DNA of 64,000 bases from Longimicrobiales bacterium (GTDB taxonomy: Bacteria; Gemmatimonadota; Gemmatimonadetes; Longimicrobiales; Gaopeijiaceae): contig CAXXKM010000003.1 of the NCBI GenBank assembly GCA_963664435.2, positions 1,088,001-1,152,000 of the forward strand. The letters are read 5' to 3'. A program made the position numbers and the translations under genes. Of the stretch, positions 43,348 to 62,867 are shown piece after piece. The stretch's first letter is position 1. Each line of letters begins with the position of its first letter. A model generated the notes under the pieces. It was not told where the DNA came from. It ran no database searches and saw only the letters and a list, made by a program, of their open reading frames with translations.

Positions 43348-43523
43348 GTTTCGGTCGACCAGGGTCCTGAGCGTTGAGGAGTGGGAGTGAGCATCCGGCG
43401 CGCCGGCGGGTTATGGATCAGGCCACCTGGGCACGGGTCGGCCGGAATCGCGGGCCCCGCGGCCCGGCCACGCCCGGGCGCGCCGGAATGCTCTCCGTAC
43501 TGCGTACAGCTGCGTTCGAGGAT

Positions 43524-43820: not shown

Positions 43821-43934
43821 TACATCTCCTGCGTTGTGGGTGCACGAGACTCCACCGGACTGCCCCATCCGACGGAACGACAAGACAGGATACACGGAAT
43901 GGAGCGATTGCGGAACCTCGTGCCCCCCCGGCCA

Positions 43935-43976
43935 TGGGCGCTGACGGATTCGAACCGCCGACCTCCTGCTTGTAAG
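43935..43976 (-). tRNA. 3' half of tRNA-Val(TAC): att-site remnant, not a full tRNA
   Basis: Minus strand CTTACAAGCAGGAGGTCGGCGGTTCGAATCCGTCAGCGCCCA = anticodon loop, T-arm and 3' acceptor strand; no D-arm or 5' acceptor strand upstream. Confidence 0.85.
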
Positions 43977-44552: not shown

Positions 44553-44765
44553 GTGAACACAAAGACCAGGGGAGCGCGCTACATGTTCATTGCGAAGGTG
44601 CTGGACCGAACCGGCTACCACGGTCTCCGCAAGAAAGAGAAGTCGAAGATCAAGGCACTGCTCCAACGGGGCACCGGGTTCTCCCGCGCCCAACTTACGC
44701 GGTTGATCGCACAGCATCGCACGACCGGGAGGATCGTAGACCGGCGACGGTGGTGGGAGGTCTAG
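44553..44765 (+). pseudogene. N-terminal fragment of an rve-type IS transposase
   Basis: RYMFIAKVL...GY..LRKKEK...TGFSRAQLTRLIAQHRTTGRI resembles an IS transposase HTH region; truncated. Confidence 0.55.
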
Positions 44766-44987
44766 GATGCGGCGCGCCCATGGCGTCCCCGACCGATTCC
44801 CAGGGACGGTGATCACACATGGAAGGCAATCAGCGCCATGGCGGCGGAACGGATCATCCGGGTGAGCATCGAATCGAGGCGCGAGCGCCTTGGGTTGACC
44901 CGCCTGGATGCCATGGTTTCCCTTGACGGACGGGGACCGTGTAGGGGCGGTCAATGCGCATGCGGGACGAAAGGAGCGAGATAAACA

Positions 44988-45335
44988 ATGAAGGACAGTT
45001 TCGCGATTCAGGAGCTGGGTGTCGCGCTGGTCAAGCTTGAGCGTCGCGTCGTCACCGGGTTCGATCAACTGAACGGACGGATCTCCGCATTGGAATCGAA
45101 GCTCGGCTCGCGGATCGACGACGTGGAGGCGCACGCGCACAAAGGGAACGTCGAGCTCGGGAGCAGGATTGAAATGGTGTCAGCCAAGTTCAAGCAGATT
45201 CGATACTCGCTCGACGGGCTGGAGGACCGCCTCGGCAAGAGGGTCGACGGATTGGACACCGAGGTCCACAAACAGCTCGGCGCTCTACAAGCCGCGGTCG
45301 ACGCGATCGGCGCGCACTTCGTCAGTTCGCAGTAG
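44988..45335 (+). CDS. Small coiled-coil hypothetical protein
   Basis: ATG preceded by an AAGGAG-containing purine-rich stretch; heptad-like repeats (LGSRID/LGSRIE/LGKRVD). Confidence 0.65.
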   Translation: MKDSFAIQELGVALVKLERRVVTGFDQLNGRISALESKLGSRIDDVEAHAHKGNVELGSRIEMVSAKFKQIRYSLDGLEDRLGKRVDGLDTEVHKQLGALQAAVDAIGAHFVSSQ

Positions 45336-46669
45336 TCGAGGTTCTCCTATCCTGATGATCGACCATTTGGCCAGGATGCGCGATCGGGACGAATGACGAG
45401 TTCCGCGACGTGAGCTATTGCCAGGTCCAGGCCGAGGCCGTGCAGTGCGCCGACTGCGGAGGTCCAACCACGGAGGTCTTCGGCAATTCCGGACGCCGGC
45501 GGCGCTGAGCGCGCTGTGTGCCCGCGTTGCCGCGAGGATGTGCCGCGCAAGAGATGGCAGCGGGACGCGCTTCTGCCGGAATGACGCGACGGGCCGCTGC
45601 CGCGAGTGCGGGGCGATCACTTGCACCCTTCATCGGCGCGGATGCGAGTTCGAGCACCATCGAGCGCGGGCGCGCGCCGAGCCCTCGAGTTGACAGGGGA
45701 AGAGGGGAGACTCGGCGTAGCTCTGGAAGGCGGCTCGATTGACCGCGTCGACACAATCGCATCCCTACTTCGTCCGTTCCGAATTGCGCACCATGTCTTT
45801 GGCAGCCCTCACGCGGGGTTCATATTGCGGCGCGATGCTGCGGGTCCACCGAAGAAGAAGTCGCAGCCGCGCGTGAGCGAACCCGCCAACGAGCGGTCGT
45901 CACCGCTCACGGTCGCGATGCCCGACGCGCACTGAATGAACCGCACGCGGATTCGAGTGACCCGCGAGCCCCGGAACGTCCTTGAAGGCATCCCGCACGG
46001 CACTACAGTAGTCCTCCAGAGCGTCGGGGACGGGGACGGGTTCCTCCCCTCCTGGAGGGGCCGGAGGCGGATCCGGCCAGCGAGGACGATGCAACCGTGC
46101 TGGCGGGATATCCGGTCTTTCGCATGGCGACTTGGAAGGTCGGCACCGATCCCCTATGGGCTTGGCGCGCCAATGTTTCCTCGGTCCTCGCCGTGCGCTG
46201 GTGACGTCACGAGCGGGATCTCCGCCTGACCTCCGCGAGGCGAACGACGAATCACGGATCGTTTTTCAACAACGCAGCGGAGGTTTCCCACGCCGTTGAC
46301 CCCATTTTTCCACGAATCGCCTTCGTGCCGGTCGCTTGACTCCCGCACTGTCGGCCATCAGGCGGGAACGCTTCGTGACTTGTCTCGCGGAGCAAACGTC
46401 TGGCGCTGGGAGAGACCAGGAAGTGGGCAGCCTTCGCGTGGGCACATACTTGAGCGGCACCCTCTCATCTGCCCCATCCCGTTCACATACTTGCTGAGCC
46501 GCTGCCCCCGCCGAGCACTGCTCGCGCATCGTCCACCCCCCGGGCCGTGCCTCCTCCCCGCCCTCTCCGCAGCCCGCCGGTCGGCCCCCGCGCCGCTTGC
46601 GCGACGGCATCGCGTCCCGGAGGTTGGACGGACGTGGCGCCTCCTCGGCCACGATAAGGAGGGCCGTTC

Positions 46670-46885
46670 ATGGCGAAACAGGCGATCGAAATCGAAGGGG
46701 CGGTCATCGAAGTCCTGCCCAACGCCACCTTTCGGGTCCGGCTGGAGAACGGCCACGAGATCCACACATATCTCTCCGGCAAGATGCGCCAGCACTACAT
46801 CCGGGTGTTGGAGGGCGACCGGGTGAGATGCGAGATGTCCCCCTACGATCTGTCGAAGGGCCGCATCACGTATCGGTACAAGTAA
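46670..46885 (+). CDS. infA: Translation initiation factor IF-1 (island-borne)
   Basis: [23 protein letters not shown]...[39 protein letters not shown]. Confidence 0.95.
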
Positions 46886-46899
46886 TTCGCTGTACACGC

Positions 46900-47150
46900 T
46901 CGCCCTGCGGTCGATGCCGACATCACAGAACCGGGCATGCTCACCGGCCGCGTGCCGCCAGCCTCGCCGGACTCGCCCCGGTCAGCCCGGGAGTCCGGAA
47001 ACTGAAGGGGACGGAGCTTCATCCAGGGCGGCAGGCATCGGGTGCGCCGGCTGCTTTGCATTGCGCGCGATGGCCTTGGTTCGGCACAATCCCGTCCTGA
47101 AGCACGAGTACGAGGCGTTCGTGGCCCGCGGGAAGCCGCCGAAGTTGACA
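46900..47150 (+). pseudogene. Frameshifted IS110-family transposase C-terminal remnant
   Basis: Across frames: ASLAGLAPV, FIQGGRHRVRRLL, VRHNPVLKHEYEAFVARGKPPK. Confidence 0.7.
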
Positions 47151-47214
47151 ACCCCAACGGCCCCGGTGCATTGTGGCCGCGCTGCACGACCCAGGGGACG
47201 GGGAGACGGCAATC

Positions 47215-47570
47215 ATGAGCAGATCGAATTCGTGGATGGCCGGGACGGCGTTGGGTCTTGCCATTGTAGCGGGACCAACGGTGGCGGCAGGCGAGGAACT
47301 CCCCCCCGACATCCGAAACGACCGCAACGTCGTGCGTGCCGATCGGCTGGTCCAAAACCAGGACCACGGTGCCGCGCTGGAATCCCTGGACGTGGTCTTG
47401 GCGCGGCAGCGCGGCAGGCCAGGAGCGGCATGAAGACCCCGGCAGAACTCTGGTTCAGGCACGCACGGACAGCTCCGGACGCCGGGTACGCCGAGACCGT
47501 GGCCACGTCGGTCGTCCGCTGCTTGGAGAAGGCGGGTCGGCGCGGAGCCTCCGCCGGGAAGACGGCGTGA
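47215..47570 (+). pseudogene. Frameshifted, truncated secreted protein (ELPP.I..DR...helical N-terminal domain)
   Basis: Signal peptide plus ELPPDIRNDR...GAALESLD, continuing in another frame as PAELWFRHA...SVVRCLEKAGR. Confidence 0.45.
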
Positions 47571-48071
47571 AGAAGTGGCGCCCACCCAAGGGACGGAAGC
47601 CGCCGAAGCGGAGGGTGGGGCAACGTCCGTCGCGCAAGCCACGGAAACAACGGCGGCGCCGCCGGGACAAGGGCCGGTGGGAGAAGGAAACAGACGACCG
47701 GATCGAGTGATCAGGTTCGGCACGTCGTCGGAACCACGCGTAGCGCGCCCAAACCTCTCTGCCGTATCGATCCGCCGGGGCCAACCGGAGCCGGTCGTAT
47801 GCTCCTGCCCGCGTCCAGCGACGTTGCCACTCCGGGGCGCGTGCGAGATGGGACCGTCGGAGGGCGGCGGGTCGATCACCCTGCGGGTCGCTGACTGCGT
47901 GGCTGACGGGCGCCGCACTTTGGTGTCCACGGTGGATCCGTGAACGTTCGGTAACCGCGCCACCCGGCCGGCGGGAAACTTCGAGAGCCGCGCCGCGCAG
48001 GTTGCGTGAGCCGGGGCTGGTGGGTGCCTCCTCGTCGTGGTGGTGGTCGCGCGGGACGGGCCGGTTGGGCC

Positions 48072-48232
48072 CGTCCGGCGGGTATTGAGTCGGTTCCGGC
48101 CTTCGGCGAACTCAAACTCTCCGGCCTTCGTTCGACGATTCGCGCTTCACGGACCGGACCGGAGTTACCGGTCTCCGCGCGCGTTCGGGGCGCTTGCGCG
48201 CCTCCGGTTCCGGCGGGCCTCGCCGTACCTGC
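48072..48232 (-). ncRNA. Putative omegaRNA/gRNA scaffold overlapping the 3' end of the tnpB-like gene
   Basis: Clear similarity to both 58.5-58.95 kb repeats; TnpB omegaRNAs are known to overlap the tnpB 3' end. Confidence 0.6.
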
Positions 48233-49194
48233 AGTTGGCGCCCGTGCCAACGGGCCTTGTACTCGAGCTGGCGCAGCATCTCGCTGCTGACGCCCTCGAC
48301 GATGATCGTGCCGGCGGCGAGGACGACGATGGTGGTGAGCTTGTGGTGGCGGTCGCGCTCGCGGTTCCTGATGTTCCTGGCGACATTGCGGAACCGTTCG
48401 AGAACGCGGGCCCGCCGCTTCGAGTCTTCGGTGCAGCGGCTCAAGCGGCGCTGGAGCCGCCTCATCCGCTGCCTGTCGGCGTCGGAGCGCTCGTCCGGTC
48501 CCGGGACTTCGATGGGCCTGCCGTCGAGTTCGACGGCGATGCCCGGGCCGTCCTGGCGCACCACGGCGACCTCCGCCGTGGGCGCGGCGGCATCGACCGG
48601 GCCGCACTCGAACACGCACGAGAACATCCAGCGCTCGCCGGCGTCGCGCCAGACCCGGCCGTACACCATGCCGAGCGTCGTGCGGCTCTTCGGGCCCTCG
48701 AGCCGGCCAGCGGGCAGGCTCCCGCCCAGCCAGCGCATCCAGCCGAACTTCGGCAAGCGGACGCGGTTGCCGTCGAAGCGGGTGCCGTGGCTGGCCACGT
48801 AGATCCCGGGGGCGCGTCCCTCGGGCTTGAACCTCGGCAGCCCCTGGCGCGCGCGTGGCTTGGTGTGCCAGTTGCGGAACGCTCCGTGCATGTCGGTCGC
48901 GATCTGGTAGATGGCGGTGGACGGGAACGGGTCGCGGTTCGGCCTGCGGCGCCACCAGTCCTGGGCGGCCGCGCGGAACTCCTTGCCGGTCATGTGCCGG
49001 CCCGTCTGGGAATACTGCAGGTTCGAGGCGCCGAGCAGGGCGTTCGACAGCTCGCGGAGCCCCTCCCGGCACAGGGCGAGCAGGCGCGCCTGCGGCCGGT
49101 TCGGGTACAGGCGGCACTGCCAGCCGACGTAGCGCGCTTCCCCGTTCGGCCGGGCCGCGCGCGCGCCGGGCGCGGTCGGCCGCTTGGTCGCCAT
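48112..49194 (-). CDS. TnpB-derived protein, truncated and apparently nuclease-dead (TldR-like)
   Basis: CRLYPNRPQ, PRFK, RVRLPKFGWMR, RRLQRRLSR, HHKLTT, IIVEG and QLEYKARWHGR match TnpB. RuvC-I G(I/V)D is absent (AVVRQ); zinc finger and RuvC-III are missing. Strong RBS, 16 bp after the upstream stop. Confidence 0.85.
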   Translation of the reverse strand: MATKRPTAPGARAARPNGEARYVGWQCRLYPNRPQARLLALCREGLRELSNALLGASNLQYSQTGRHMTGKEFRAAAQDWWRRRPNRDPFPSTAIYQIATDMHGAFRNWHTKPRARQGLPRFKPEGRAPGIYVASHGTRFDGNRVRLPKFGWMRWLGGSLPAGRLEGPKSRTTLGMVYGRVWRDAGERWMFSCVFECGPVDAAAPTAEVAVVRQDGPGIAVELDGRPIEVPGPDERSDADRQRMRRLQRRLSRCTEDSKRRARVLERFRNVARNIRNRERDRHHKLTTIVVLAAGTIIVEGVSSEMLRQLEYKARWHGRQLQVRRGPPEPEARKRPERARRPVTPVRSVKRESSNEGRRV

Positions 49195-49210
49195 GACGCT
49201 CCTCCCTCCC

Positions 49211-52200
49211 CTACCGGAGCTTGATCCGTCCGCGGACGCCCACCGAGTGCTGGGCCGCACCCAGCGCGCTCTCGCGCCGCGTGCCTTCCAGCCGCAGCCC
49301 GACCCCCGCGCCCAGATCGTAGCGCACGCCGCTCGAGAAGGCGCGCGTCCCGCTCTTGCCGAGGTAGAAGCCGCTGTAGGGCGTCCCCTGGAAGCCGGCG
49401 ATGCCGTAGGCCACTTCGCCGTCCACGTTGGGGCCCATGCCCAGGTCCTGGCCGCCCACCGCGTCGGACACCCCGCGCTCCCAGAGCTGGTTGACCCCGC
49501 TCCTGTGGTCGCCGTACGCGGGCGCCACCCGGACCTGCAGCCCCTGGCCCGGGGCCGCCGGGTCGAACATGAGCATGCCGCCGAGGCCCCATTCCTCGTA
49601 GCCTTGGCGCGCCGAGATGACGAACCGGCCGCGGCCCTCCGCGGTCAATCCCAGCCCGGAGTTCGTGTAGCGGAGCCCGCCGCCGACCTCCGCGCTGGTG
49701 CCGTTGATGCCGTCGCCGTTGTCGTAGCGCATCCCGCCCTCGAGCACGAACGCCATCTCCTGCCCCGTGTCGGTGCGGAAGCCTTGCGTCAACTCAAGGG
49801 CAAGCTTGGCGCGCTGCATGTCGAGCGTCACCGTGCCGATCTGCTCGGTGCCCTCGACCTCGAACCGGCCGCTCCAGCCCTCGGCCTTGAGGCTCACGCC
49901 ACCGATGCCGCTCGTGAACAGCTGGTAGCTCGCGCCTCCCGCCCCCGTCATCATGCTGGCGGGGCTGGTGCGGAGCCCTTCCCGCTCGTCGTCGACCTCG
50001 ATGTCGCCCCGGCCGATCCCGGCCGAACCCCACACCGAGGCGCCGCGCGCGCCGGGGAACCAGGCCACGTAAGGATGCGCGCTGGTCATGGTGGTGCCGT
50101 AGGTGCCGGCCACCGGTCGGGCGCCGGTCTTGTCGGTGAAGTCGAAGGAGCCCGAGTTGTACGAGCCCGCGACACCCGCCAGGATGTCCGGCCCCACGCG
50201 CATGTCCACGCCGACGTGGGCGCTCACCATGTTGCCCTTCCAGTCGAGCTCGCTCGCGCCGGGTTCGCCCATGTAGTGGTACTCGCCCGCACCCCAGCTC
50301 GCCATCTGCATGCCGGTCGCGGACTGCTGCGGCGCGTCCGGGGTGCCGAACGGCATCAGGAATGAGGTGCCGCCGAATAGGGCGGCCAAGCCGGCGCCGT
50401 CATTCTGGCCGAGGCCGAGGCCGCCCGGACCCGGCGCGGACAGGCTCGCGGCCATCGACGACAGTCCGTTCGTCTCCACGCTCTGCTCCATGCCCATCCC
50501 GTTGGCCACCGCGTTGACGCGGTTTGCGATCGCCGAGACGGTGCTCGAGGTCATCGCCGCGGCCACCTGCGGCAGGACGCGGGTGTTGAGCCGGCCCGCC
50601 CGCTGCACGGGGTCGTCGGTCGCCGCCGTTGCGCTCGCAGACGCCGCGCCGGTGCCCGCCCGGTTGATCGCCGACACCCGGTAGTGGCGCACGCTGCCCG
50701 GCTGCAGGGCGGTATGCGAAAAGGTGGCAACCGTGGACTCGGTGTTGGTGACCAGGTCCGCCCAGGCGGCGCCCGTCTCCGACACCTCGATGCGGTACCC
50801 GGTGATGGGCGCACCGCCATTGTAGTCGGGCGCGAGCCAGAACAGGTCGATCTGGGTGGGCGAGACATCGGTGGCGACCAGCCCGGTGGGCGCGTCGGGC
50901 ACCGTCGCGTCCGTGGTGGAGCCCGCGACCCGCGACGCGTTGCCCACGCCGATCCGGTTGATCGCCGAGACGCGGTAATGGCGCGTCGAGGCCGGCGCCA
51001 GCCCGCTGTGCGTGTAGACGGTGGCCGTGCTGCGCGTGGCGGCCACCAAGTCCTCCCAGCTCCCGCCCCCGTCGGCCGTGACCTCGATGCGGTAGCCGGT
51101 GATGCGGGCGCCCCCGTCGTCCGCGGGTGCCTGCCAGGAGAGGACGATCTGCGAGGTGCCGGCCGCATCGGCGTTGAGACGTCGCGGCACGCTCGGAACA
51201 GTCGCCTCGGTGGTCGCCCGCGCCACGTTCGAGAACGGCCCCACCCCCGCGAGGTTGATGGCGGCGACCCGGTAGTGGCGGGTGGTTGCGGGCCTCAGGT
51301 TCACGTCCGAGAACGCCGTCGTCGCCGAGTTCGTGTTGCGGCGGATGATGTTCCAGGTCGCGCCCTCGTCGTCGGAGGCCTCGACGCGGTAGCCGAAGAT
51401 CGAGACGCCGCCGGTGTAGCGCGGCGCGTTCCACGACAGGTCGATGCGCGAGGTGCCGACTGCCCGGGCCGTCAGCCCAGTCGGGGCCGCGGCGAAGTCC
51501 GCGTGCGTGAGGGCCGCCCCCGTGAGCGACCACTGCCCGGCGCCCACGCGGTTGATGGCCGCGACCTGGTACTGGTACCGGGTCACTGGGTCAAGCCCGG
51601 TGTGCGTAAAGGTCGTTGTCGTCTCCTCCGTGTTGGGACGGATGATGATCCAGGAGCGATCGTTGGGCCCGAGCATCCGGATGCTGTAGCCGGTGATGCG
51701 CGCCCCTCCGTCGCTCTCCGGCCGGTCCCAGACGAGGAGGACGCTGTTCGGTCCCGTTCCGCGGGCGCGTACGTTCTGCGGCTGCCCGGGAGGCGCCGCA
51801 TCGGTGGTGCCTTGGGCCACGTTGGAGGCGCGTCCCGTACCCACGCCGTTGATCGCGGACACGCGATAGAACCAGGTGGCGGCGGGGCCGAGATTGCTGT
51901 CGGTGTAGATGGTGGCCGTGCTGCCCGTGCCGGGCACATGGATGATCCAGCCGCCGCCGCCGGTGGCGGACCTCTCGATGCGGTAGCCGGTGATCGGGCT
52001 GCCGCCGTCGTCGGGCGGGGCGGACCAGGTGAGGAGGAGTTCGTCGGTTCTCCTCGCGCCCGGAACCACGCTCAGTGCTATGGGCGGGCTCGGAGGGGTG
52101 GCGTCGGTGGTCGCCTGGGCGGTGTTGGACCACGGGCCCAGACCCGCCCGGTTGATCGCTGCTACGCGGTAGTGGCGCGTGGTGGCGGGGCTGAGCTCGT

Positions 52201-53509
52201 CGTCGGTGTAGGTGGTGGCCGTGGACTCGGTGTCGGCCTCGAGCCGCGTCCAGGGGCTGCGTCCGGCCCGCGACCATTCGATGCGGTAGCCGGTGACCGG
52301 CGTCGAGCCGCTGGAGGAGGGGGCGCGCCACCTCAGTTCGATGGCGGACATCCCCCGGGCCTGCGCCGTCAACGACCGAGCCGCGTCCGGCAGGACATCC
52401 TCGGTGGTGGCGTCGGCGACGTTCGAGGGGTCACCCGCCCCGTTGAAGTTGATGGCCGACACCCTGTAGTGCCGCGTGACGCCCCCGGTGAGATCCTTGT
52501 CGTCGCGGTAGCTGGTGTCGGTGTTCCGGGTATTGCGCTCCAGAGTCGACCACGGGTCGCGGCCGTCTTCCGACCACTCGATGAGGTACCCGGTGATCTC
52601 GCGACCGCCATTCGAACTCGGCGCCTCCCACTCCAGTATGATCGCGTCGGGGCCGTCGGCCTCCGCCGTGAGCTTGCGCGGCTCTCCGGGCACCCCGGTG
52701 CGCGCCTCCCCGGTGACGTTTCGCACCGCCCTGTCGAAGCCGAACGCGCGATTGCCGGCCAGATCCCGAAGCGCGTCGGCGCCGCGGTCGTCGTAGAACA
52801 CCCGAACCGCGTCGAGCGTATCGACGGGGCTTGCCAGAAGCAGGAACACATCGCGGGTGGCCACTTCGACCCGGGACACGGTCTTGACGTCGTGTGACAC
52901 GGTGCTATTTCCGAAGGCGACTTGGAAATAGCTGGTCGATGGGACGAAATCCTCATCGAGGTCTTCGTCGAAGGCGATGACGACTTCGTCGCCGTTGACC
53001 TTCGCGTCGCTGACTACAGGGCCCCTGGTGTCCACGTTGATGTTGACCACTCTCGACGGGGTATTCCCCTCCTGCGAGCTGTTCTGCACCACGTTCCCAG
53101 GGATATGGAAGAACACCAGGCCGTCATATTGTTCCGGCATCCTCATCGTGACGACAAACCTCCTGCCTTCGTCACTGTCCAGCGGATCGGCCACTGCACA
53201 CGCCGCGGTCGGGTGCGTGCACGTGATGTTGATGTCGTCGACCGTGAAGCCGGTCACGCTCTGCGAGAAACGGATGACGACGCTGGCAGAGTTCTGTGTG
53301 GACCCGATCCAACTCCATGAAATCGAGGTCGTGGGGGGGACGGCCACGTCGCTCGCCACTGGGGATTCCACAACCGACGGGACGCCCGCACGCGAACCGC
53401 CCACATATGGCTCCTCAGCCTGTACGCCCGCAGATGGAACCAGGAGCGCGCAGACCACTGCGGCCGCCAAGAGGGAACGGACGGGTACGCCAGGCTGATT
53501 CGGAATCAT
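49211..53509 (-). CDS. Large surface protein: Ig-like and SwmB-like regions, 7 fibronectin-III repeats, autotransporter-like beta-barrel
   Basis: Signal peptide; 7 repeats of W.AP..GG..ITGY.IE...YRV.AIN..G.G; C-terminal beta-barrel-like region. Confidence 0.85.
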   Translation of the reverse strand: MIPNQPGVPVRSLLAAAVVCALLVPSAGVQAEEPYVGGSRAGVPSVVESPVASDVAVPPTTSISWSWIGSTQNSASVVIRFSQSVTGFTVDDINITCTHPTAACAVADPLDSDEGRRFVVTMRMPEQYDGLVFFHIPGNVVQNSSQEGNTPSRVVNINVDTRGPVVSDAKVNGDEVVIAFDEDLDEDFVPSTSYFQVAFGNSTVSHDVKTVSRVEVATRDVFLLLASPVDTLDAVRVFYDDRGADALRDLAGNRAFGFDRAVRNVTGEARTGVPGEPRKLTAEADGPDAIILEWEAPSSNGGREITGYLIEWSEDGRDPWSTLERNTRNTDTSYRDDKDLTGGVTRHYRVSAINFNGAGDPSNVADATTEDVLPDAARSLTAQARGMSAIELRWRAPSSSGSTPVTGYRIEWSRAGRSPWTRLEADTESTATTYTDDELSPATTRHYRVAAINRAGLGPWSNTAQATTDATPPSPPIALSVVPGARRTDELLLTWSAPPDDGGSPITGYRIERSATGGGGWIIHVPGTGSTATIYTDSNLGPAATWFYRVSAINGVGTGRASNVAQGTTDAAPPGQPQNVRARGTGPNSVLLVWDRPESDGGARITGYSIRMLGPNDRSWIIIRPNTEETTTTFTHTGLDPVTRYQYQVAAINRVGAGQWSLTGAALTHADFAAAPTGLTARAVGTSRIDLSWNAPRYTGGVSIFGYRVEASDDEGATWNIIRRNTNSATTAFSDVNLRPATTRHYRVAAINLAGVGPFSNVARATTEATVPSVPRRLNADAAGTSQIVLSWQAPADDGGARITGYRIEVTADGGGSWEDLVAATRSTATVYTHSGLAPASTRHYRVSAINRIGVGNASRVAGSTTDATVPDAPTGLVATDVSPTQIDLFWLAPDYNGGAPITGYRIEVSETGAAWADLVTNTESTVATFSHTALQPGSVRHYRVSAINRAGTGAASASATAATDDPVQRAGRLNTRVLPQVAAAMTSSTVSAIANRVNAVANGMGMEQSVETNGLSSMAASLSAPGPGGLGLGQNDGAGLAALFGGTSFLMPFGTPDAPQQSATGMQMASWGAGEYHYMGEPGASELDWKGNMVSAHVGVDMRVGPDILAGVAGSYNSGSFDFTDKTGARPVAGTYGTTMTSAHPYVAWFPGARGASVWGSAGIGRGDIEVDDEREGLRTSPASMMTGAGGASYQLFTSGIGGVSLKAEGWSGRFEVEGTEQIGTVTLDMQRAKLALELTQGFRTDTGQEMAFVLEGGMRYDNGDGINGTSAEVGGGLRYTNSGLGLTAEGRGRFVISARQGYEEWGLGGMLMFDPAAPGQGLQVRVAPAYGDHRSGVNQLWERGVSDAVGGQDLGMGPNVDGEVAYGIAGFQGTPYSGFYLGKSGTRAFSSGVRYDLGAGVGLRLEGTRRESALGAAQHSVGVRGRIKLR

Positions 53510-53574
53510 CGTGCCTTCTCCGCGTCAGGTGAAATGCGCGGTGGAATAGTCATTTGCTTACCGGTCGTCTGGTG

Positions 53575-53617
53575 AGCGTCACCCCCCGTTCGGGAGTCCC
53601 GAACGGGGGGTGACGCT
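53575..53617. terminator. Perfect ~20-bp-stem hairpin between the two surface-protein genes
   Basis: AGCGTCACCCCCCGTTCGGG / CCCGAACGGGGGGTGACGCT. Confidence 0.65.
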
Positions 53618-53632
53618 GTCCCGCGGCCTGCG

Positions 53633-53673
53633 ACCATCAGCCTGGCTGACGGTTAGTCAGCCAGGCTGATGGT
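53633..53673. terminator. Perfect 18-bp-stem hairpin just after the lipoprotein stop
   Basis: ACCATCAGCCTGGCTGAC-GGTTA-GTCAGCCAGGCTGATGGT. Confidence 0.65.
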
Positions 53674-53683
53674 GTTGAAGGGG

Positions 53684-56600
53684 TTATGGGACATCTACTG
53701 GCGTACCCTCGGTGAAGTCGCCAGCACTGCCCTGTCTCGAGTCGACGCGAACTCTGAACGGCTTGTTGAGTTCGACGTCCGTGATCGCAATCGCCGTTCC
53801 ACCCACCGTGTTCCAGCTCGCGGTGAAGTCATGAATCCACTCCAAGCTCCAACTCCTGGTGGTGCTTGCGATGGTGGCGGGCTCTCCACCTGAGGCGACG
53901 AGCCACAAAGTCGAACCAGTGTTTTCGGAGGCGACCTCAACCATGATCCGGAACTCGGAACTGGTGTTGCTATCGGCGTCCCAAGTGACGGTGAGGGTGT
54001 CGGCAACGGTGGTATCGGCAGTCGCCGCACGACTCGCAGTGACACCGCTGGTCGACGGATCGACCGCGCCGACCGTGACCGGATCGGATTCGATCGTGAA
54101 GGTAAGGTCCGAATCGGTGGGGTGTGCGACCGACGTCACCACTCGAACCATGAAGGTGGTATCGCCCGGCGACGTGAACGTGTAGCTGCCCGGGACATTG
54201 ACCGTAGTGCCGAGGCTGTCGCGCGTCACCAAGGTTGCGCTCGCATCCGTGAAGGTGCCGGTGTAGTTGTGCTGCACCTCGTGCGTGGCGGGGCTGGTGA
54301 ACCCTTCGGGCACGTCCGTGGCGCTGTCGACGAACTTCACGCTGATGTTGCCATCGTAGCGTTCGGATTCGTCGATGTCCTCGGTGGACTCGTCGTCCTC
54401 CGTGCGGGCACGCGATGCGCTGAGGTTCCTAGCCCCAGGCGACAGCGCCTCGATCGCGCCGAAGTTCAAGCTCTGACCCGGTGCGACGCTCACCCTCTGG
54501 TTGTCGTTCGGATACTTGAAGCTGTGGTTCGCCAACGACGCTTCGATGTCATAGGCGCCGAACGGTACGCTGAGCACGAAGGTGCCTCTCGCGTTGCTGG
54601 TGCTCAAGACGTCGTCCCCGGCTGCGCCTGCGACCACGTTCGTGGCCGTGACCGTAACGCCACCCATGGCGTTGCCGTCCGGACCTCTCACCCGGCCCGA
54701 AATCGTCGCATGCTGGAAGCCGGTGAAGTTGATGCCCGAGACCGCCGATCCGGCGTGGGCCGGAACAGACAGCGTCGCAGGCGCGAAGCTCATGCCGTCC
54801 TTCGACACGGTCACATCGGCGCTCTCGCCGAGGTCCTTGGCCGCGAATTCTGCCGTGTAGGTGCCGTCGGCGCCCGTCACGAGCTTGCCCCTGTTCGCAC
54901 CGGTCTTGGCCGCGTTGGTCGGGGCATTGCCGTCAACCTTGATCTCCGCACCGGCGATCGGCGCGCCGCTGCCGGACGCGGTGACCGTACCGCTGATCGA
55001 GGCGATCGTGCCTACGCCCGAAAGATCGACGTCCTGCCGGATCCGGCTGTTTGCGGCAAAGGCCTGGATGTTCCGCGTCTCCCCGCTTCCTCCATGGGCG
55101 GTCTCGACGAAGACGCTGTTCGTGTGCGTCACGGTGCCGATTTTGCGGCTCGCCACGTTCGGCACGTACTCCGCGATGTAGCGGCCGTGTACGTCGGACA
55201 TCGCTACAACACCGTTCACGTTCACGTTCACGCTGTCCACGGGGAAATCCTCCGCGTCCTTCACGTAGCCGTAGACGGTGGTCGTCGCCGGCGTGACGTC
55301 GAGTGAGACGTCACCCGCGAGCGGGTTGAAGGCGTTGCCGACCATGGCCGTGGCGCCCTTCGGACCCAGCCTCGCCCGCCAGCCGTCCGTCACGCTGGCC
55401 TTGTAGACGCCGGCCGCGATGTTGTTGAAGGCGAACTGGTGGGTCTCGTCGAGCACTTCATTGCCCTTGGCGGTCTCACCCGGCCCCCGGACCGGCTTCT
55501 CCGTAGTGGTGGCGGACTCCTCGTCACCCGCGAGATTCTTGCCCTCGACCGGGCTCAGGCTGACGGAAATGCCGGCTACGAACGTGGGGGGGGCACCCTC
55601 GGGATCATATACGTCGACTCCGTCGGTCTTGCCGAACGAGAATCTGTCATCGTTGGCAGTCTCGGTGCTCTTGACGACCACGTTCTTCCAGATCAGCCCG
55701 CTCACCGAGTGCGTGCTGACGTAGGCGAACGACGAGCAAGCGTCGTGGTCCTGCGGGTTCTCGTCCTGCAGCGGGCAGAGCGAAACCGTGTGGCTGTAGC
55801 CGCCCTGCGCACCGAAGTGGCCGCCGGTGATGCCGTTGGCATCCGTGCCGGTGTAGGCGGCGAGCTCATCGGCATGCCCGCCCTCATCGAGGATCATGAT
55901 GCTGAGGTCGGTGTTGTCGGCCTTCGACGCGTTGGCGATCACGTTCATGTCGGCCGGCACGTTGCTGAAGACCCACGCACCGCCGTCACCATTGTCTTTC
56001 GGTTCGCTGATGCTGTCCGCAGCCGTGAACGCGCGCGAGCGTCCGGAGTCGTCGATGTAGCGGAGGTCGACATCGACCTTGCGGTCGGCGCCCTTACCGT
56101 CCCTCTCGTCACCGCCGAGGATGTTGCCGGTGTAGCCTTCGACTTGATCAAGCTCGTGGTGCACGTAGACCTTGAGGGTCTGGGTCGTGAACGCCACCTC
56201 GATCATGTCGGCGTTCTGGGTGCCCGCCAGCATGAGGCCGGTGTGGGTGTACTCGACCGAGCCACCGTCGTAGCTCTCGCCGCCGTCCAGCGTGTTGGCC
56301 TGGTCGTCGTCGACGGCGATGGTGAAGGTCGCCGGCAGGTCGTCGGCTCCCACGGTGGTCGTGAACGCGGCGACGCCGGCTGTGTCCAGCTTCTCCGGCG
56401 CGCCTGCGACCGAGTCTTCGCCTGCCATGACGCTGATGGCCCAGTTGGCGAGCGTGTCGCCGCCACCGTACTCGGTGGTGACGGTGGCACCGCTGATGGC
56501 CACGTCGACGTTCAGGTTGACGATGTCGTTCTCGTTGGCGCCCGCGGCCATGTTGTACTGCGGGTTCCACGACACGACCGTCATGCCGTCGGCCACATGG

Positions 56601-58330
56601 TAGCCGTCGGCGGAGACGCTCGCGTGGACCATGTTGCCGCTGGTGCCGGCGCGCGCGACCCGGATCATCACCGAGCCTTCTTCGCCGGTCATGCCGCTGC
56701 CGATCTTGGTCTCACCGGCCGCGTCCGAGAAGAAATCGACGATCGCGCCGGGAAGCGCGGCACCCATCTCTTCACCGCTCCTCAGCGAGGCTGTGAAGTT
56801 GACCCTGGTGTGCGTGATGTCGAACGGAACCGACTGCGTCACAGCCTCGCCGACACCGAGGGCGACCGCGTAGCCCTCGCCGGGTCCGCCGTAAGCCAAG
56901 TCGTTGGCCGCGAGAGCCGCGGCGACCGTGGCGTTGATGGTCACGACCAACTGGTACGGGCCGGCGCGGAGGCCTGTGAAGGAGAACGCGCCGGTCGAGT
57001 CGGTGAGGCTCACCCGCTGCTCGTTGACGCCCGGGCCCACCAGCACCACCGGAAGACCGGCGTGCGCCAGCGGATGCTCGCCCTCGTCGAACATGTCGTT
57101 CTTGGTCGCCTCGTCAACGTACGCCATGCCGGACACGCTCGCGGTGCGCGCGTGCGCGCCCTCGAAGTTAATGATCGCCGACTCGTCGTCGCCGACCGTC
57201 ACGTCCGTGCTCATCGACTCGAAGACGTAGGCGTCGCTGTCGACCGCGATCGAGACCGTGTAGTCGCCGGCCGCCAAGCCCGCGAAGGAGTACTGGCCGC
57301 CCGCGTCGGTCATCGCGGTGCGGTCGTCCGCGCCCGCCAGCGTGACCGTGATCTCGCCGAGGCCCATGCCCTCGACGCTCACCCGGCCGCTGATGCCGGA
57401 GGTGCGGAGCAGGACGCCGGTGAACGACACGGTGCTGGTCTCATCGAGATCCACGTTCACGTCTTGGGACGTGGACGCGAACTCGTAGTCGCGCGCGTCG
57501 AAGTCAGAGATCGAGACCGTGTAGGCGCCGGGACGCAATTCCTCGAACCGGTACATGCCGTCGGCGTCGGTCATGATGGTGTAGCTCTCGTCGGCGGGAC
57601 CGCCGCTCAGGGTAACCGTCACCCCAGCAAGGCCCTCGCCTTCGATGATCACCTGGCCCTCGACCGCGGAGGTGCGGATGAAGTGGCCCGTGAAGTCGGC
57701 CTGGCCGACATCGCCGACCTCGACCGCTACCTCGACCATCACCGTCTCGAAGGAGACGTCCTCCGGATAGTCGCTGATCGTGACCGTGTAGGTGCCGGCC
57801 CGGAGCCCGGTGAACGCGAAGCCGCCGGTCTCGTCGGTCTCCATGGTCTCGCCCATGGCGTGCTCACCGCCCAGCGTGACCGTAACGCCTGCCAGCGTTT
57901 CGGGCTGGCCGTCGCCGCCGCTCATCATGGCGTCGGCCGCAACCACGTTGCCGACCACTGCGGACGAGCGGATATACTCGCCGGCGAAGTTGAGTTGGAC
58001 GTTCTGACCATCGGTCGCGATGGTCGCGGACTGCGTCACTTCGGCGAACGTCGCGTCCTCGGGGAAGCCGCTGATGGTGACCGTGTAGGTTCCCTCTTCC
58101 ACGCCCGAGAAGGCGAAGTTGCCGCCCGACCCGGTGGTCGTGGTCGCACCGGACGACAGGGTGGCGGTGACGCCGCTGGCGGCCGTGCCCTCGATCGTCA
58201 CCGCCCCGGAGATCGTCCCCACGGCAGCAGGCTCCGGCGGGGGCTCCACTATCGGTGGAGTGCCCTCGTCGCAGGCGGTAATGGTAACGGCCAGCAGCAG
58301 CGCCAGCCCGTGCTTGGTAAAACGGTTCAT
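53684..58330 (-). CDS. 1548-aa acidic surface lipoprotein with carboxypeptidase-regulatory/SdrD-B-like repeats
   Basis: Lipobox ITAC; repeats of G(I/V)TVTL.G....T...G.(F/Y).F.GL.AG.Y.V.IS; GGAGGG RBS. Confidence 0.85.
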   Translation of the reverse strand: MNRFTKHGLALLLAVTITACDEGTPPIVEPPPEPAAVGTISGAVTIEGTAASGVTATLSSGATTTTGSGGNFAFSGVEEGTYTVTISGFPEDATFAEVTQSATIATDGQNVQLNFAGEYIRSSAVVGNVVAADAMMSGGDGQPETLAGVTVTLGGEHAMGETMETDETGGFAFTGLRAGTYTVTISDYPEDVSFETVMVEVAVEVGDVGQADFTGHFIRTSAVEGQVIIEGEGLAGVTVTLSGGPADESYTIMTDADGMYRFEELRPGAYTVSISDFDARDYEFASTSQDVNVDLDETSTVSFTGVLLRTSGISGRVSVEGMGLGEITVTLAGADDRTAMTDAGGQYSFAGLAAGDYTVSIAVDSDAYVFESMSTDVTVGDDESAIINFEGAHARTASVSGMAYVDEATKNDMFDEGEHPLAHAGLPVVLVGPGVNEQRVSLTDSTGAFSFTGLRAGPYQLVVTINATVAAALAANDLAYGGPGEGYAVALGVGEAVTQSVPFDITHTRVNFTASLRSGEEMGAALPGAIVDFFSDAAGETKIGSGMTGEEGSVMIRVARAGTSGNMVHASVSADGYHVADGMTVVSWNPQYNMAAGANENDIVNLNVDVAISGATVTTEYGGGDTLANWAISVMAGEDSVAGAPEKLDTAGVAAFTTTVGADDLPATFTIAVDDDQANTLDGGESYDGGSVEYTHTGLMLAGTQNADMIEVAFTTQTLKVYVHHELDQVEGYTGNILGGDERDGKGADRKVDVDLRYIDDSGRSRAFTAADSISEPKDNGDGGAWVFSNVPADMNVIANASKADNTDLSIMILDEGGHADELAAYTGTDANGITGGHFGAQGGYSHTVSLCPLQDENPQDHDACSSFAYVSTHSVSGLIWKNVVVKSTETANDDRFSFGKTDGVDVYDPEGAPPTFVAGISVSLSPVEGKNLAGDEESATTTEKPVRGPGETAKGNEVLDETHQFAFNNIAAGVYKASVTDGWRARLGPKGATAMVGNAFNPLAGDVSLDVTPATTTVYGYVKDAEDFPVDSVNVNVNGVVAMSDVHGRYIAEYVPNVASRKIGTVTHTNSVFVETAHGGSGETRNIQAFAANSRIRQDVDLSGVGTIASISGTVTASGSGAPIAGAEIKVDGNAPTNAAKTGANRGKLVTGADGTYTAEFAAKDLGESADVTVSKDGMSFAPATLSVPAHAGSAVSGINFTGFQHATISGRVRGPDGNAMGGVTVTATNVVAGAAGDDVLSTSNARGTFVLSVPFGAYDIEASLANHSFKYPNDNQRVSVAPGQSLNFGAIEALSPGARNLSASRARTEDDESTEDIDESERYDGNISVKFVDSATDVPEGFTSPATHEVQHNYTGTFTDASATLVTRDSLGTTVNVPGSYTFTSPGDTTFMVRVVTSVAHPTDSDLTFTIESDPVTVGAVDPSTSGVTASRAATADTTVADTLTVTWDADSNTSSEFRIMVEVASENTGSTLWLVASGGEPATIASTTRSWSLEWIHDFTASWNTVGGTAIAITDVELNKPFRVRVDSRQGSAGDFTEGTPVDVP

Positions 58331-58549
58331 CTTTCCCTCCTGGGAGTGGGTTGCGGTCAGCGAGGAAACATGGAGCCTCGCGGCTCACGCTTACGGAGCA
58401 ACAACGGTGCCACCCGAGGAAGCCCGGTTTTACAGTGGGTTTCGGCCCGTACGCTCCGGCCTGGGACCGCCGCTCCCGGTTTTCTGACGGTCAAGACGTC
58501 AGAATTCTGGTGGCGCCCCGGGGCCGGGCCCCGCGTAGCGGTTAAAGCG

Positions 58550-58738
58550 ATTCCGGCAGTCGCTGGGTCGGTCCCGGGGGGTGCCCGGCTCTGTATCGCG
58601 ATTCACGGTTCAGCGACCGCCACGGTAGCCGAAGCCCCATGGTAACCCGGTCTCCGCGTGCGTTCGGGACGCCAAGGTCCCCGGTTCCGGCGTGCCTCGC
58701 CGTACCGTAACAGGGTTGCGCGCCGCGTTTGACGCCGC
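58550..58738 (-). ncRNA. omegaRNA-like scaffold copy A (putative guide follows at <=58549)
   Basis: 189-bp direct repeat of 58765-58952; homologous to the tnpB 3' end at 48072-48232. Confidence 0.7.
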
Positions 58739-58764
58739 CAAGCCGCACTATAGCGGCACACCAA

Positions 58765-58952
58765 ATTCCGGCAGTCGCTGGGGCGGTCCCGCGGGCCGCC
58801 CGACTCTGCATCGCGATTCACGGTTCAGCGACCGCCACGGCAGCCGAGGCCCCACGGTAACCCGGTCTCCGCGTGCGTTCGGGACGCCAAGGTCCCCGGT
58901 TCCGGCGTGCCTCGCCGTACCGTAACAGGTTGTGTGCCGCGTTTGACGCCGC
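58765..58952 (-). ncRNA. omegaRNA-like scaffold copy B (putative guide 58739-58764)
   Basis: 188-bp direct repeat; its 5' end translates as NAAHNLLRYGE, resembling the TnpB RuvC-III/C-terminal motif. Confidence 0.7.
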
Positions 58953-59794
58953 TCCCCATGGCGTCGCCCCTGCGGTCACCCCAGCCCTCTCTCGATCCTC
59001 CAGTTTCGCGATCCGGCGCTCGTTCGGGCCGAGGCCGCTGACAGGGCCTTCCGCAGGCCCGCGCGGGCGCGCCCCTTCGGCAGCCGCTCGCGGTATCGGT
59101 CGAACTCCCTCTGTCTCGTCCTCGGACAGCATGAAGAAGTCGGTCTCGTTCATTTCGGTTACTCAAGGACCCCAAGGGCCCCCGCTCCAGACCTACAATT
59201 GTGCGGAAAACGCGCAAGCGATGCTAGCTCCGTTGCAGTTCTCACCGCAACTTCGGGTCCTTCGGAAGAGGGGGCAGCGGAGAGTGCTCTTGGTCCGGCG
59301 ACGCAGAAGCCCTGGTGCCCAAGCCACCCGCCAACGATACAGCGGGCAGTACAAAGAACGCGGCAGGAGCCGGGGCTTGCTGGTTCTGGCTTCCGCTCAG
59401 CCATCGACGACCCTCCGGTAGAGGCCGCAGACGAATGGCGAATTCGAGGCCGGCCGCCTTCGCCGACTCCTGGAGGTCGGCGAACTTCTCGGCGTCGACG
59501 CGCTTCTCGCTGTACTCCTCGCCGGGAGCAGCCGAGGTATCGCAGTCCTTCCAGAATCCCTTGTTGAAGTCGCTTTGCCGCCCCTGCACCGGTAACCGTG
59601 CTCGCAAACGAGGGGTGGGGGAGTCTCCGACGGTCCAGTAAGCCCTCGCCGGGGCTGCCCGGACCTTGAACCGGTGGCGTCCGTGCGCAACGCCTCCGCC
59701 GACCTGCATCTCCGGTCCTCCCAAGCCCCCTACCGGAAGTCCCGGGCGTCCCGCCGAGGGCATTCAGACGCGCTGCTGGCGGCAGTGTCCTTTG

Positions 59795-60249: not shown

Positions 60250-60849
60250 AGATTTTCGACGGGTTGACTTGCCGGCGAGCGCCTCTTCAGCGTTCCAGGT
60301 ATGGAGACGCAGAAGTACCTGTTCAGCATGCGGGTCGGCACCTCCCTCGGGGACACCGGCGCGCCGTCCCCGAGGGCATTGGTGATGAAGGCCTCCGGTT
60401 CGGACCTCGGCGATGGCCCCGTCCCCGAAGCCCCCAAGGTGGACGCGGATCGGCTTCGGCGGCCTTCGTCCCCGCCGACTGGATTGAAACCAGTCGCGGA
60501 TGAACTCCGTCATATGCCGCCCTTCGGCTCACCGAAGCGTGGAGGGCAGCACGAGCAAACGAGGCGAAACACCGGAGGAGACGCACGTAGTCAGGTTGAT
60601 CCACGCCACGGCGGAACCGGTGCCCGCGCCCCTCGACAGGGACGCTGGGGGGATCGGTCGCCGCTTTGGCTTCGGGGGTACATGGACGGCGCGGCATTGC
60701 TGGCCACCATCCCACCGTTGGCCGCGCTTCGCGAGGCCCGTCTGAACGGGTTCCCCGGAGCGCGTGCGGTGGTGCGCCGCCACGGCATTGGCGGCAGCCG
60801 GCGACGGGTCTCGGACACGTCGCCGACGGGGTCGTTGGACGCGGCTAAG

Positions 60850-60890
60850 GGCGGTAAGCCAGCCTACCCGTTGTCATACAACGGGGCTGG
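60850..60890 (-). other. Putative oriT with a ColE1-type nic motif CTGG^CTTA
   Basis: TAAGCCAG at 60855-60862 next to the inverted repeat CCCGTTGT-CAT-ACAACGGG, ~130 bp upstream of mobC. Confidence 0.65.
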
Positions 60891-60994
60891 CGAGGGGATG
60901 GCTCCCGCCCCCCCTTCGAACCCCCCGCGCGTCGCGCTCCCGTGGAGGTCGCGCTTGGGGGCGCCGCCCCCATCCCCCGCGCCGGTGCGGCGTG

Positions 60995-61333
60995 ATGCCA
61001 GAGCGCCGCACCGCCGTCGTCACCGCCCGCGTATCGGCGACCGAGTTCGCCGACTGGCGGGCCAAAGCCGCAGCCGCAGGCGTGCCCCTGTCGGCGCTCA
61101 TCCGGCGAGCCATGGCCCGTACTCGGACCTGGACGGCCCGCGCGGCCGAGGTCGAGCGCGAGCGCACCCGGGAGGCCGGCCGCATCGGCAACAACCTCAA
61201 CCAGATCGCTCGGTGGGCAAACACCCACAAGGGGTCGGCCGAGGCCGTCGAGGTGATCGCCCGCCTTGTCGCCATAGAGCGGGCCCTCACGGCGCTTGCT
61301 CGCTTCGAGAGCCCGGACTCCGATGCACATTAA
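60995..61333 (+). CDS. mobC: Relaxosome accessory protein MobC (MbeC-like)
   Basis: RHH-like N-terminus plus RIGNNLNQIAR motif. Confidence 0.9.
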   Translation: MPERRTAVVTARVSATEFADWRAKAAAAGVPLSALIRRAMARTRTWTARAAEVERERTREAGRIGNNLNQIARWANTHKGSAEAVEVIARLVAIERALTALARFESPDSDAH

Positions 61334-62867
61334 GTTCCTGGCGCACGGGACCGGCTCGGCCGGCAAGGCGGCTGGCTACCTGTTGGGGGAGCGGGACGCC
61401 GCCGGGAAGCCGCGCGAGGGCGTCGAGGTGCTGCGCGGGAACCCGGACATGGTGGCCGCGGTGGCCGATTCGCTCGACTTCGAGCACAGGTACACGTCCG
61501 GCGTGATCGCCTGGGCGCCGGACGACCAACCCACCGACGAGCAGATCGAGGCGGTCCTGGACGCCTTCGAGAAGACGGCCTGGGCGGGACTGGAACCCGA
61601 CCGCTACGCATGGGCGGCCGTGCTCCACCGCGAGCGCGGCGGAGGGGCTCACGTCCACGTCCTTGCCGCACGGTGTGACCTCGAAACCGGCCGCAGCCTC
61701 AACATCGCGCCTCCGGGATGGCGGAGGGCGTTCGATCCGCTCCGCGACGCCTTCAACCACGAGCACGGCTGGAGCCGGCCGGACGATCCGGCCAGGGCCA
61801 GAGTGCAGCACCCCGGCCACCGCGCCTACGTCGAAGCGGCACAGCTGCGGGCCGGGCTCCGGCTCGAATCCTCCCCCCGCGACCTGATCCGGGACTACCT
61901 GTTTCAGAGGGTCGAGCACGGCACGGTGCGGAATCGCCACGATGTCGTGTACGCACTGCGGGAGGCGGGCCTCGAAGTGCCGCGCCAGGGCAAGGACTAC
62001 CTCACCGCGCTCGACCCCGAGACCGGGGACCGGTGGCGGCTGAAAGGAGAACTGTATGGAGAGAACTTCGACCGCGAACGATTTGACCGAACGGCTGCGG
62101 AGACGGCTGGAGAGCGAACGCAGGGAGATCGAGGAGTTGACCGCGAGCGAGCTCGCACAGCTCGCCGAGAACTCGCGGCGCGTCGTGAGGAACGCGCTGC
62201 GTACCATCGAGCGCGATACGGAGGAGGCGACCGGGCGGATGCGCGAGTTGCTGGTCAAGGCGTGGCTCCGGCCGCTGATCGTCGGCCTGAGTCTTTGGAT
62301 CGGTTTCTTCGGCGGAAGCTGGGCGACGATGCGCTGGTTGGCGGGCAGCATTCAGGACCGGATCGTGACCCGCGCCGAACTAAACCGGGACATCGAGGAC
62401 GCCCGGCGAACGCTGGCCCAACTGGAGGTGGATACCTGGGGGCTCGTGTTCCACGAGATCGAGGGCGAGCGGTTCGTGGTGGTGCCGGACGGGGTGCTGG
62501 CCGATCCGCCCTGGTGGGTGGACGGGGATCGTCCGGCGTTGAAGCTGTCGAACGAGTAAAGGAGGTCTATGACGCGTTAGAGGAGCAGTTGACGAGAGCC
62601 TTGCGGAGGCTGTGCGCGCAGTACGAAACGGAACAGCGGCGGCACTCCGGGCAGGTCGAAGCCTTGCAGCGGCAGGTCGAAGCCTTGCAAGGGCGCGTCG
62701 AGCGGCAAAGCGGGGAGAACGAAGCCTTGCGGCAGCACGTCGAGCGGCAGAGCGCGGAGAACGAAGCCTTGCAGATGCGAATCGAGCGGCTCGACGCGCT
62801 AGCGACACGCTTGGCCGAGTATTCCGGGACATCCGCCGTCGCGAGACCGCGCGGCCTCGGTATCTGA
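61323..62867 (+). CDS. mobA: Relaxase, ColE1 MbeA/MOBP5-like
   Basis: MHIKF...GTGS...YLL, RYTSGVIAW, HRE...HVHV, TGRSLNIAPP; coiled-coil tail. Confidence 0.9.
   Translation: MHIKFLAHGTGSAGKAAGYLLGERDAAGKPREGVEVLRGNPDMVAAVADSLDFEHRYTSGVIAWAPDDQPTDEQIEAVLDAFEKTAWAGLEPDRYAWAAVLHRERGGGAHVHVLAARCDLETGRSLNIAPPGWRRAFDPLRDAFNHEHGWSRPDDPARARVQHPGHRAYVEAAQLRAGLRLESSPRDLIRDYLFQRVEHGTVRNRHDVVYALREAGLEVPRQGKDYLTALDPETGDRWRLKGELYGENFDRERFDRTAAETAGERTQGDRGVDRERARTARRELAARREERAAYHRARYGGGDRADARVAGQGVAPAADRRPESLDRFLRRKLGDDALVGGQHSGPDRDPRRTKPGHRGRPANAGPTGGGYLGARVPRDRGRAVRGGAGRGAGRSALVGGRGSSGVEAVERVKEVYDALEEQLTRALRRLCAQYETEQRRHSGQVEALQRQVEALQGRVERQSGENEALRQHVERQSAENEALQMRIERLDALATRLAEYSGTSAVARPRGLGI
62056..62559 (+). 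CDS. MbeB-like mobilization protein nested in the relaxase gene (alternative frame)
   Basis: AAGGAG RBS, coiled coil plus TM helix, nested position as in ColE1 mbeB. Confidence 0.7.
   Translation: MERTSTANDLTERLRRRLESERREIEELTASELAQLAENSRRVVRNALRTIERDTEEATGRMRELLVKAWLRPLIVGLSLWIGFFGGSWATMRWLAGSIQDRIVTRAELNRDIEDARRTLAQLEVDTWGLVFHEIEGERFVVVPDGVLADPPWWVDGDRPALKLSNE

Follow-up and report, generated by a model that had tools for sequence, protein, structure and literature searches.

Two tandem omegaRNA-like units with different predicted guides and a clade of nuclease-dead TnpB proteins in a sponge-associated Gemmatimonadota genus

TldR proteins of the oppF/oppA clade have a decayed RuvC triad, have lost the zinc finger and lack a transposase, and they use a pseudoknotted scaffold with a guide of about 9 nt (9 nt in the oppF clade), according to the available parts of two preprints (10.1101/2023.11.30.569447; 10.64898/2026.09.22.753285). 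Their targets are paralogues of the linked cell-envelope gene and lie within the transcript, with the TAM towards the promoter; the linked copy itself escapes, as for fliC-P. TldR blocked elongation in the same orientation as is seen here for guides W and A (10.1101/2023.11.30.569447, in the part available). Sigma-TnpB and dCas12f-sigmaE systems combine a dead TnpB-like effector with tandem copies of the whole omegaRNA or gRNA (PMC10691335; PMC13472631, in their available parts); the former source reports arrays of whole omegaRNAs next to dead effectors as well as stand-alone omegaRNAs that act in trans, and the latter tandem gRNAs bound by dCas12f.

Here we report a locus in a sponge-associated member of the Gemmatimonadota (genome G000) and its relatives, whose dead TnpB-like proteins share the above traits of TldR as far as these sources go, Y1 being the transposase that was searched for. 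Host and gene context (Gemmatimonadota; cassettes of surface lipoprotein and Fn3 protein; SusC) point to an origin separate from that of oppF/oppA TldR. An inferred TAM of TGAA and three coexisting subfamilies are further differences, and the units A and B described below have no adjacent tldR ORF. The available parts of the two preprints contained no ORF-free tandem scaffolds with different seeds for TldR. As in dCas12f-sigmaE, susC genes are among the targets and HTH genes lie nearby; those effectors, as described in the available text, are derived from Cas12f, coupled to a sigma factor and activate transcription from upstream sites, whereas here the predicted fold is that of an ISDra2-type TnpB, no sigma factor is linked and the targets lie within the transcript. 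The units resemble the trans-acting omegaRNAs of OMEGA systems in being scaffold plus guide without an effector gene, use in trans being a prediction here; the OMEGA examples in the available part of PMC10691335 are mobilised and serve active nucleases, while the present units occupy one locus and all their candidate effectors are dead. We found no published work on TldR in Gemmatimonadota or on TnpB in sponge symbionts, although the supplementary TldR lists of the preprints may include this clade, and one supplement of PMC10691335 gave no match for this taxon.

Layout, structure and RNA contigs of the units

The window (the whole stretch of DNA analysed, 64,000 nt) carries the two units on the minus strand with the following parts:

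58922..58952, minus strand: leader of unit B, a remnant of the tnpB RuvC-III codons (NAAHNLL)
58766..58921, minus strand: omegaRNA-like scaffold of unit B, 156 nt; 109 bits with covariance model R1, which includes it in its training set; 28/28 core pairs intact
58757..58765, minus strand: 9-nt sequence TTTGGTGTG, predicted guide B; the genome has no site with a TGAA flank
58743..58756, minus strand: hairpin 3' of guide B, CCGC-6 nt-GCGG, from sequence and fold
58707..58738, minus strand: leader of unit A, the same tnpB remnant as in unit B
58551..58706, minus strand: omegaRNA-like scaffold of unit A, 156 nt; 117 bits with covariance model R1, which includes it in its training set; 28/28 core pairs
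58542..58550, minus strand: 9-nt sequence TCGCTTTAA, predicted guide A; matches perfectly, behind TGAA, a SusC/RagA start codon (G000:C1:893428)
58531..58541, minus strand: hairpin 3' of guide A, CCGC-3 nt-GCGG, from sequence; after it a GC-rich stem with no U run

Each unit is a complete omegaRNA-like scaffold to which no protein gene is attached. The initial annotation had described two near-identical units of about 189 bp with a period of 215 bp, and this is correct: units A (58550-58738) and B (58765-58952) are 93.65% identical over 189 nt. The 62-nt core that it saw in common with 48168-48229 is real as well (82% identity), and the core is nearer to two other copies on contig C1 (87%). 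Both units end in GCGACTGCCGGAA, after which the sequences diverge, as had been claimed for the 3' tails; that claim needs narrowing, as CCGCTA and a CCGC-loop-GCGG hairpin follow the first 9 nt in both. The most probable start of the guide is the T after GGAA, one base before the position given there. The 5' end of unit B does read NAAHNLLRYGEARRNR, within an ORF at 58818-59153, and in relatives the full-length dead TnpBs have a matching C-terminus (NAARNFLRYGEARRNR); derivation from a tnpB 3' end thus stands, and what has been kept are whole stand-alone scaffolds with a coding remnant in their leaders. The small ORF (58818-59153, minus strand) that runs into unit B is frameshifted relative to G002 and G017 and may supply the transcript of the units. 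Just upstream of the array, at 60764-62867, an integrated mobilisable element carries MobC/NikA and relaxase genes.

The description as CRISPR-like could not be upheld. CRISPR arrays have short repeats, unique spacers, several units, a leader and cas genes; here there are two 189-bp units with homologous tails, no processed repeats and no acquisition genes, and growth is by 3'-end duplication and recombination. Rfam gave no family on the units, and the scan of 43000-64000 gave no CRISPR family. A sigma70 promoter scan found no promoter for the units, and no terminator was called at the hairpin 3' of guide A (58531..58541).

As proposed in the initial annotation, a covariance model was built and covariation was tested; a pseudoknotted structure is conserved, with compensatory changes, across 26 scaffolds. 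With a structure that was drawn by hand, pseudoknot included, from the same sequences on which pairing was counted, 98% of cells were paired in the alignment. Compensatory changes occur in the pseudoknot (A-U/C-G) and in P3, and the covariation score was reached by 0/500 shuffles, kinship among the sequences inflating the score. Between units A and B, 0/84 positions of the core and 9/72 of the insert differ (about 7e-4 by hand calculation, with core and insert regions drawn on an alignment that includes A and B), their differences being confined to variable insert hairpins with 28/28 pairs kept in both; A and the G002 unit differ at 7/84 core and 31/80 insert positions. Scaffolds of the sister systems end in GCCGGAA at the 3' end. 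The model found six scaffolds in G000, matches that are not independent tests because it was built from these sequences: units A and B, the W scaffold under 48112-49194, an identical W copy and two of type I on C1. The W copy sits in a 16-kb block duplicated at the end of contig C3, and the array lies outside that block. This block is an inverted duplicate (41957-57985 against G000:C3:1778193-1794204, 99.87%) which lies at a contig end, starts within the lipoprotein gene and is either a real duplication or an assembly artefact.

One sponge metatranscriptome run of a single study contained two relevant contigs, which indicate presence and not RNA ends, strand or level. A 152-nt contig at depth 22 is identical to 48083-48234, the W scaffold plus 11 nt; a 197-nt contig similar to unit A extends over 58546-58707 at depth 3.3 and is 96% identical, with 4 other letters and 2 gaps. 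The contigs end 11-12 nt past the scaffold. The W ORF is otherwise uncovered and no contig is specific for unit B, missing cover in run X1 not meaning silence for either.

Nuclease-dead TnpB proteins and the origin of the units

Downstream of the units in the direction of transcription lie surface-protein genes and a dead TnpB gene:

58480..58504, no strand: inverted repeat upstream of the lipoprotein promoter, from sequence; similar half-sites at paralogues
58397..58412, minus strand: motif of the lipoprotein gene which we take to be sigma54-like from the -24/-12 consensus; conserved at paralogues
53684..58330, minus strand: surface lipoprotein, 1548 aa, with CarboxypepD_reg repeats
49211..53509, minus strand: surface protein with fibronectin type III repeats, 1432 aa
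48112..49194, minus strand: nuclease-dead TnpB-like protein of type W, 360 aa, with Arg in place of the RuvC-I Asp and with loss of the zinc finger and of RuvC-III
48094..48229, minus strand: type W omegaRNA scaffold, overlapping the 3' end of the gene; covariance model match
48085..48093, minus strand: guide W, CCGACTCAA; matches perfectly a start codon in a lipoprotein paralogue (G000:C1:913498), conserved in relatives

The inverted repeat at 58480..58504 may be an activator site. A near-perfect palindrome of 43 nt (53575-53617) separates the lipoprotein and Fn3 genes, and a dispersed repeat of about 220 bp (46920-47144), with at least six further copies in the genome, lies downstream of infA.

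The initial annotation overlooked that the proteins of this clade are all nuclease-dead and that the family is aimed at host surface-protein genes. In G000 each of the four TnpB-like genes is without the RuvC-I Asp, the zinc finger and RuvC-III. A tree was built from 100 proteins of at least 300 aa (from 111 considered, shorter ones being left out), and one clade in it comprises 38 proteins (support 0.96), of which 38/38 have lost the RuvC-I Asp and 37 also the RuvC-III Asp; its sisters keep D-E-D. Five members are full length (type II, Asp to Ala) and 33 are truncated (types W and I). The predicted type II model matches ISDra2 TnpB best, and the closest sequences are ISDra2 and ISFba1 TnpB. 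The Y1 transposase (PF01797) was found in 0/5 genomes, against 6/14 in control rings. The family is present in 15/18 genomes of the genus, and among 42 genomes of other genera only one gave matches, at 26-27% identity; a plasmid search returned only distant TnpBs below 60% identity. Named relatives include Ca. Palauibacter and other Gemmatimonadota MAGs, which makes this sponge-associated group the likely source of the window. The units belong to a clade of RuvC-dead, transposase-less TnpB proteins in a sponge-associated Gemmatimonadota genus; we found no earlier description of this clade.

The family is linked to cassettes of a large CarboxypepD_reg lipoprotein and an Fn3 protein. The type I gene follows a gene for an AraC-like HTH protein, not a sigma factor. 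This HTH protein belongs to no named family and is translationally coupled to the type I protein (G000:C1, L001:4901-6870 and L002:4900-6803); both loci are divergent from a lipoprotein gene. W is a candidate loader of units A and B, as is type I.

The ancestor of the units is a full-length dead TnpB of type II, which the G000 assembly lacks, and not the protein 10 kb away. The evidence is that type II genes or scaffolds occupy the orthologous locus: in G005, in G007 and in three near-identical metagenome contigs, a type II gene is found immediately upstream of the lipoprotein orthologue. The metagenome locus carries three full scaffolds (upstream of, under and downstream of the gene), the downstream one being the orthologue of unit A, and G002 and G017 have one ORF-free unit at the same place. 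No type II gene was detected by tblastn in the G000 assembly, and none is present at the G002 and G017 loci either.

Unit number varies. In DNA run X5 a contig skips 215 nt (58640 to 58856) at full depth, which leaves one unit with tail A; assembly collapse could produce this, yet X5 is also poorer in the sampled words (0.79 against 0.91). Duplications of the 3' end with unchanged guides recur in G005, G007 and G009, and the G005 copy has a large internal deletion. We propose that the array grows and shrinks by 3'-end duplication and by recombination between scaffolds. Related arrangements were seen elsewhere: type I genes whose 3' end is duplicated in tandem or in part, the guide seed being the same (L067, L072, L073), a W scaffold whose 3' motif and guide are repeated twice, like a nascent short-repeat array (L085:5963-6133), and in G009 a minimal stand-alone scaffold of 80 nt, a compact natural form (L039:1374-1453, minus strand), divergent from a W-type gene whose own guide differs.

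Predicted guides and their targets

Among 48 distinct scaffolds, an identical stretch of 8 nt comes after 29/29 of type I and 9 near-identical nt after the 9 W-like ones, and the flanks diverge beyond that. The sister systems suggest a guide of about 9 nt (9-10 nt) and a TAM of 5'-TGAA, and the family would target paralogous genes for large surface lipoproteins, at the start codon or in the 5' UTR. G000 contains 20,917 TGAA sites. Guide W matches one of them at 9/9, where a lipoprotein paralogue has its start codon. The type I guide matches two at 10/10, both antisense and each in the 5' UTR of a further paralogue, so type I may act differently from W. In five relatives the W guide has 9 non-self matches, 8 of them at lipoprotein start codons, and guide and target covary in two genomes: with the minimal stand-alone scaffold of G009 and a W copy of G061, the target matches the variant base. 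The type I site occurs in 14/19 genomes, with 15/15 sites in a lipoprotein 5' UTR; the five genomes without it are three that are free of the family and two, both fragmented, in which the family is present. As for W, its target motif is conserved coding sequence: G006 has 8 sites though it lacks a dead TnpB, and G018, G062 and G064 have the W system and no W site. The core lipoprotein gene has a TGA at codon 3 inside the W seed in 5 genomes (6/15 sites: L223, L226, L228, L230, L233, L237), possibly an escape mutation with an alternative start or readthrough.

Other registers were considered. A guide start after GGAAT or after TCAA/TCAG gave no convincing targets. An AT TAM combined with a guide that begins at GAA suits W and A and not type I, and was replaced by TGAA with a 9-nt guide. 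A TCAA TAM for guides U and O7 within the lipoprotein gene was dropped, the sites being missing in G005 and G007, which hold those guides.

Guide A occurs once outside its unit as a 9-mer in 9 Mb (both strands), behind TGAA. The site is the ATG of a TIGR04056 SusC/RagA transporter of 1069 aa with a CarboxypepD_reg N-terminus (G000:C1:893428), in the same orientation of TAM and guide as for W. Shuffling gives P 0.007 for this match, and a codon model over 319 candidate starts gives an expectation of 0.0005. The 14-mer at this site is found in 1/61 genomes of the family (G000), 3 look-alike sites elsewhere not being gene starts, and among 15 orthologues only the G000 SusC/RagA start carries the site. 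In three relatives the genome offers no perfect target for the resident orthologue of unit A. Guide B has no TGAA-flanked site in G000, where the longest seed at a TGAA site is 4 nt, and AA plus guide B is absent from 18 relatives. The view that the units carry different 3' guides therefore holds in so far as the seeds differ and guide A has a plausible target; for guide B there is none. A perfect 9/9 TGAA site in the own genome was found for 1/7 type II-like guides (A; the others are B, D, G002/G017, U, O and O7): the best sites of D, G002, G017, O and O7 are of 7-8 nt, and U and B have no site, U not even one of 8 nt. The start of the lipoprotein gene adjoining the array mismatches guides W and A. 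Guide and TAM at relatives of the linked gene, as in TldR, were found for W and type I in many genomes and for unit A in G000 only, and not for unit B.

Several further candidates were discarded. Covariation of guides O and O7 with an internal site of the SusC orthologue did not hold, G007 having an 8-nt site and G005 no match. At L164 in G005, which has an intact type II gene, the start and the internal site of the SusC orthologue carry changes at seed positions compared with neighbours, possibly an escape. The end of an IS630-family element was rejected as a guide B target for its chance-level count and seed mismatches; nine near-identical copies exist (G000:C3:550010-551150 and 8 more), and their right end resembles tail B. 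Viral contigs gave one chance match, which is not a scaffold.

Interpretation and significance

The reading that we prefer, at a probability of roughly 0.55, is that the units are scaffolds from a lost dead TnpB gene, with unit A as a trans-loaded guide that represses the SusC gene and unit B as a recent copy without a target. Loss of a type II dead TnpB gene would have left its omegaRNA-type scaffolds standing alone. Unit A would be loaded in trans by a dead TnpB, whether W 10 kb downstream (as the initial annotation had it), type I on C1 or an unassembled type II, and would lead it to the SusC/RagA start codon, with the TAM facing the promoter and the guide pairing with the template strand. 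By analogy with TldR, binding without cutting would form a roadblock to RNA polymerase and repress the gene. Unit B, with its seed replaced, would be a recent extra copy. As guide A matches the start of an outer-membrane transporter gene exactly and guide B matches nothing, the units likely steer related dead TnpBs to switch off surface-protein genes.

The units might instead be a decaying relic: a type II gene would have been deleted except for its 3' end, which was duplicated neutrally; guide A would then have begun as the first codons of an M-N-R-F gene, and its SusC match would be ancestry or chance. The missing cognate type II protein, the orthologous guides without perfect targets, the unchanged-guide duplications in G005, G007 and G009, the internally deleted G005 copy and the one-unit allele in X5 would all agree with this. 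We nevertheless hold it to be unlikely, if a serious contender, since ORF-free units across species keep 25-28 of 27-28 core pairs, guides A and B differ at 7 of the guide positions 2-9 where their scaffolds differ by only 6%, an RNA contig lies on the scaffold and the match of guide A has an expectation of 0.0005-0.007. Seeds that change faster than scaffolds are not needed by a decoy either, and guide A has a perfect, well-placed target. It is therefore improbable that the stand-alone RNAs are decoys which titrate W or type I protein and so lift the repression of lipoprotein paralogues, even though B and most type II-like guides combine intact scaffolds with no target and the units lie directly upstream of a lipoprotein promoter.

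Silencing of mobile elements, be it the IS630-family end or a phage outside the assembly, has little in its favour beyond the match of tail B to the IS end at 15/19 nt, 10 of them contiguous: mismatches fall in the seed, the IS site has no TGAA flank, shuffled tails give 1-14 sites of equal quality and sister guides target host genes, which makes it very improbable. A true adaptive array with dedicated guide acquisition and repeat processing would account for the sharp boundary between scaffold and guide and for the replaced seed in B. There are, however, only two to three units, their tails are homologous to one another, they carry coding remnants and the compared loci have no conserved acquisition gene, so we regard this explanation as extremely unlikely. 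The locus is best read as a small TldR-like repressor module with several guides, not as a CRISPR array. The signal for regulation at the level of the family is strong; a function of the two-unit array is likely, and it depends on one match.

The exact predictions (TAM, 9-nt guides, named start codons) allow guide sharing in trans, and with it the origin of a multi-guide array before CRISPR, to be tested in reporter assays. The findings add a TldR-like clade with a new host, a new target class and a predicted TAM, in which the guide RNAs of a repressor appear to multiply without their gene. It is also conceivable, and put forward here only tentatively, that the sponge symbiont has a multiplexed natural CRISPRi network, in which the dead TnpBs of several surface-protein cassettes silence the lipoproteins of other cassettes at the start codon or 5' UTR, and omegaRNA mini-arrays add or swap targets by recombination, so that the surface coat is switched. 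If so, the mini-arrays would be an intermediate form, more than one omegaRNA and not yet a CRISPR array. The locus suggests that an uncultured sponge symbiont controls surface proteins by means of RNA guides.
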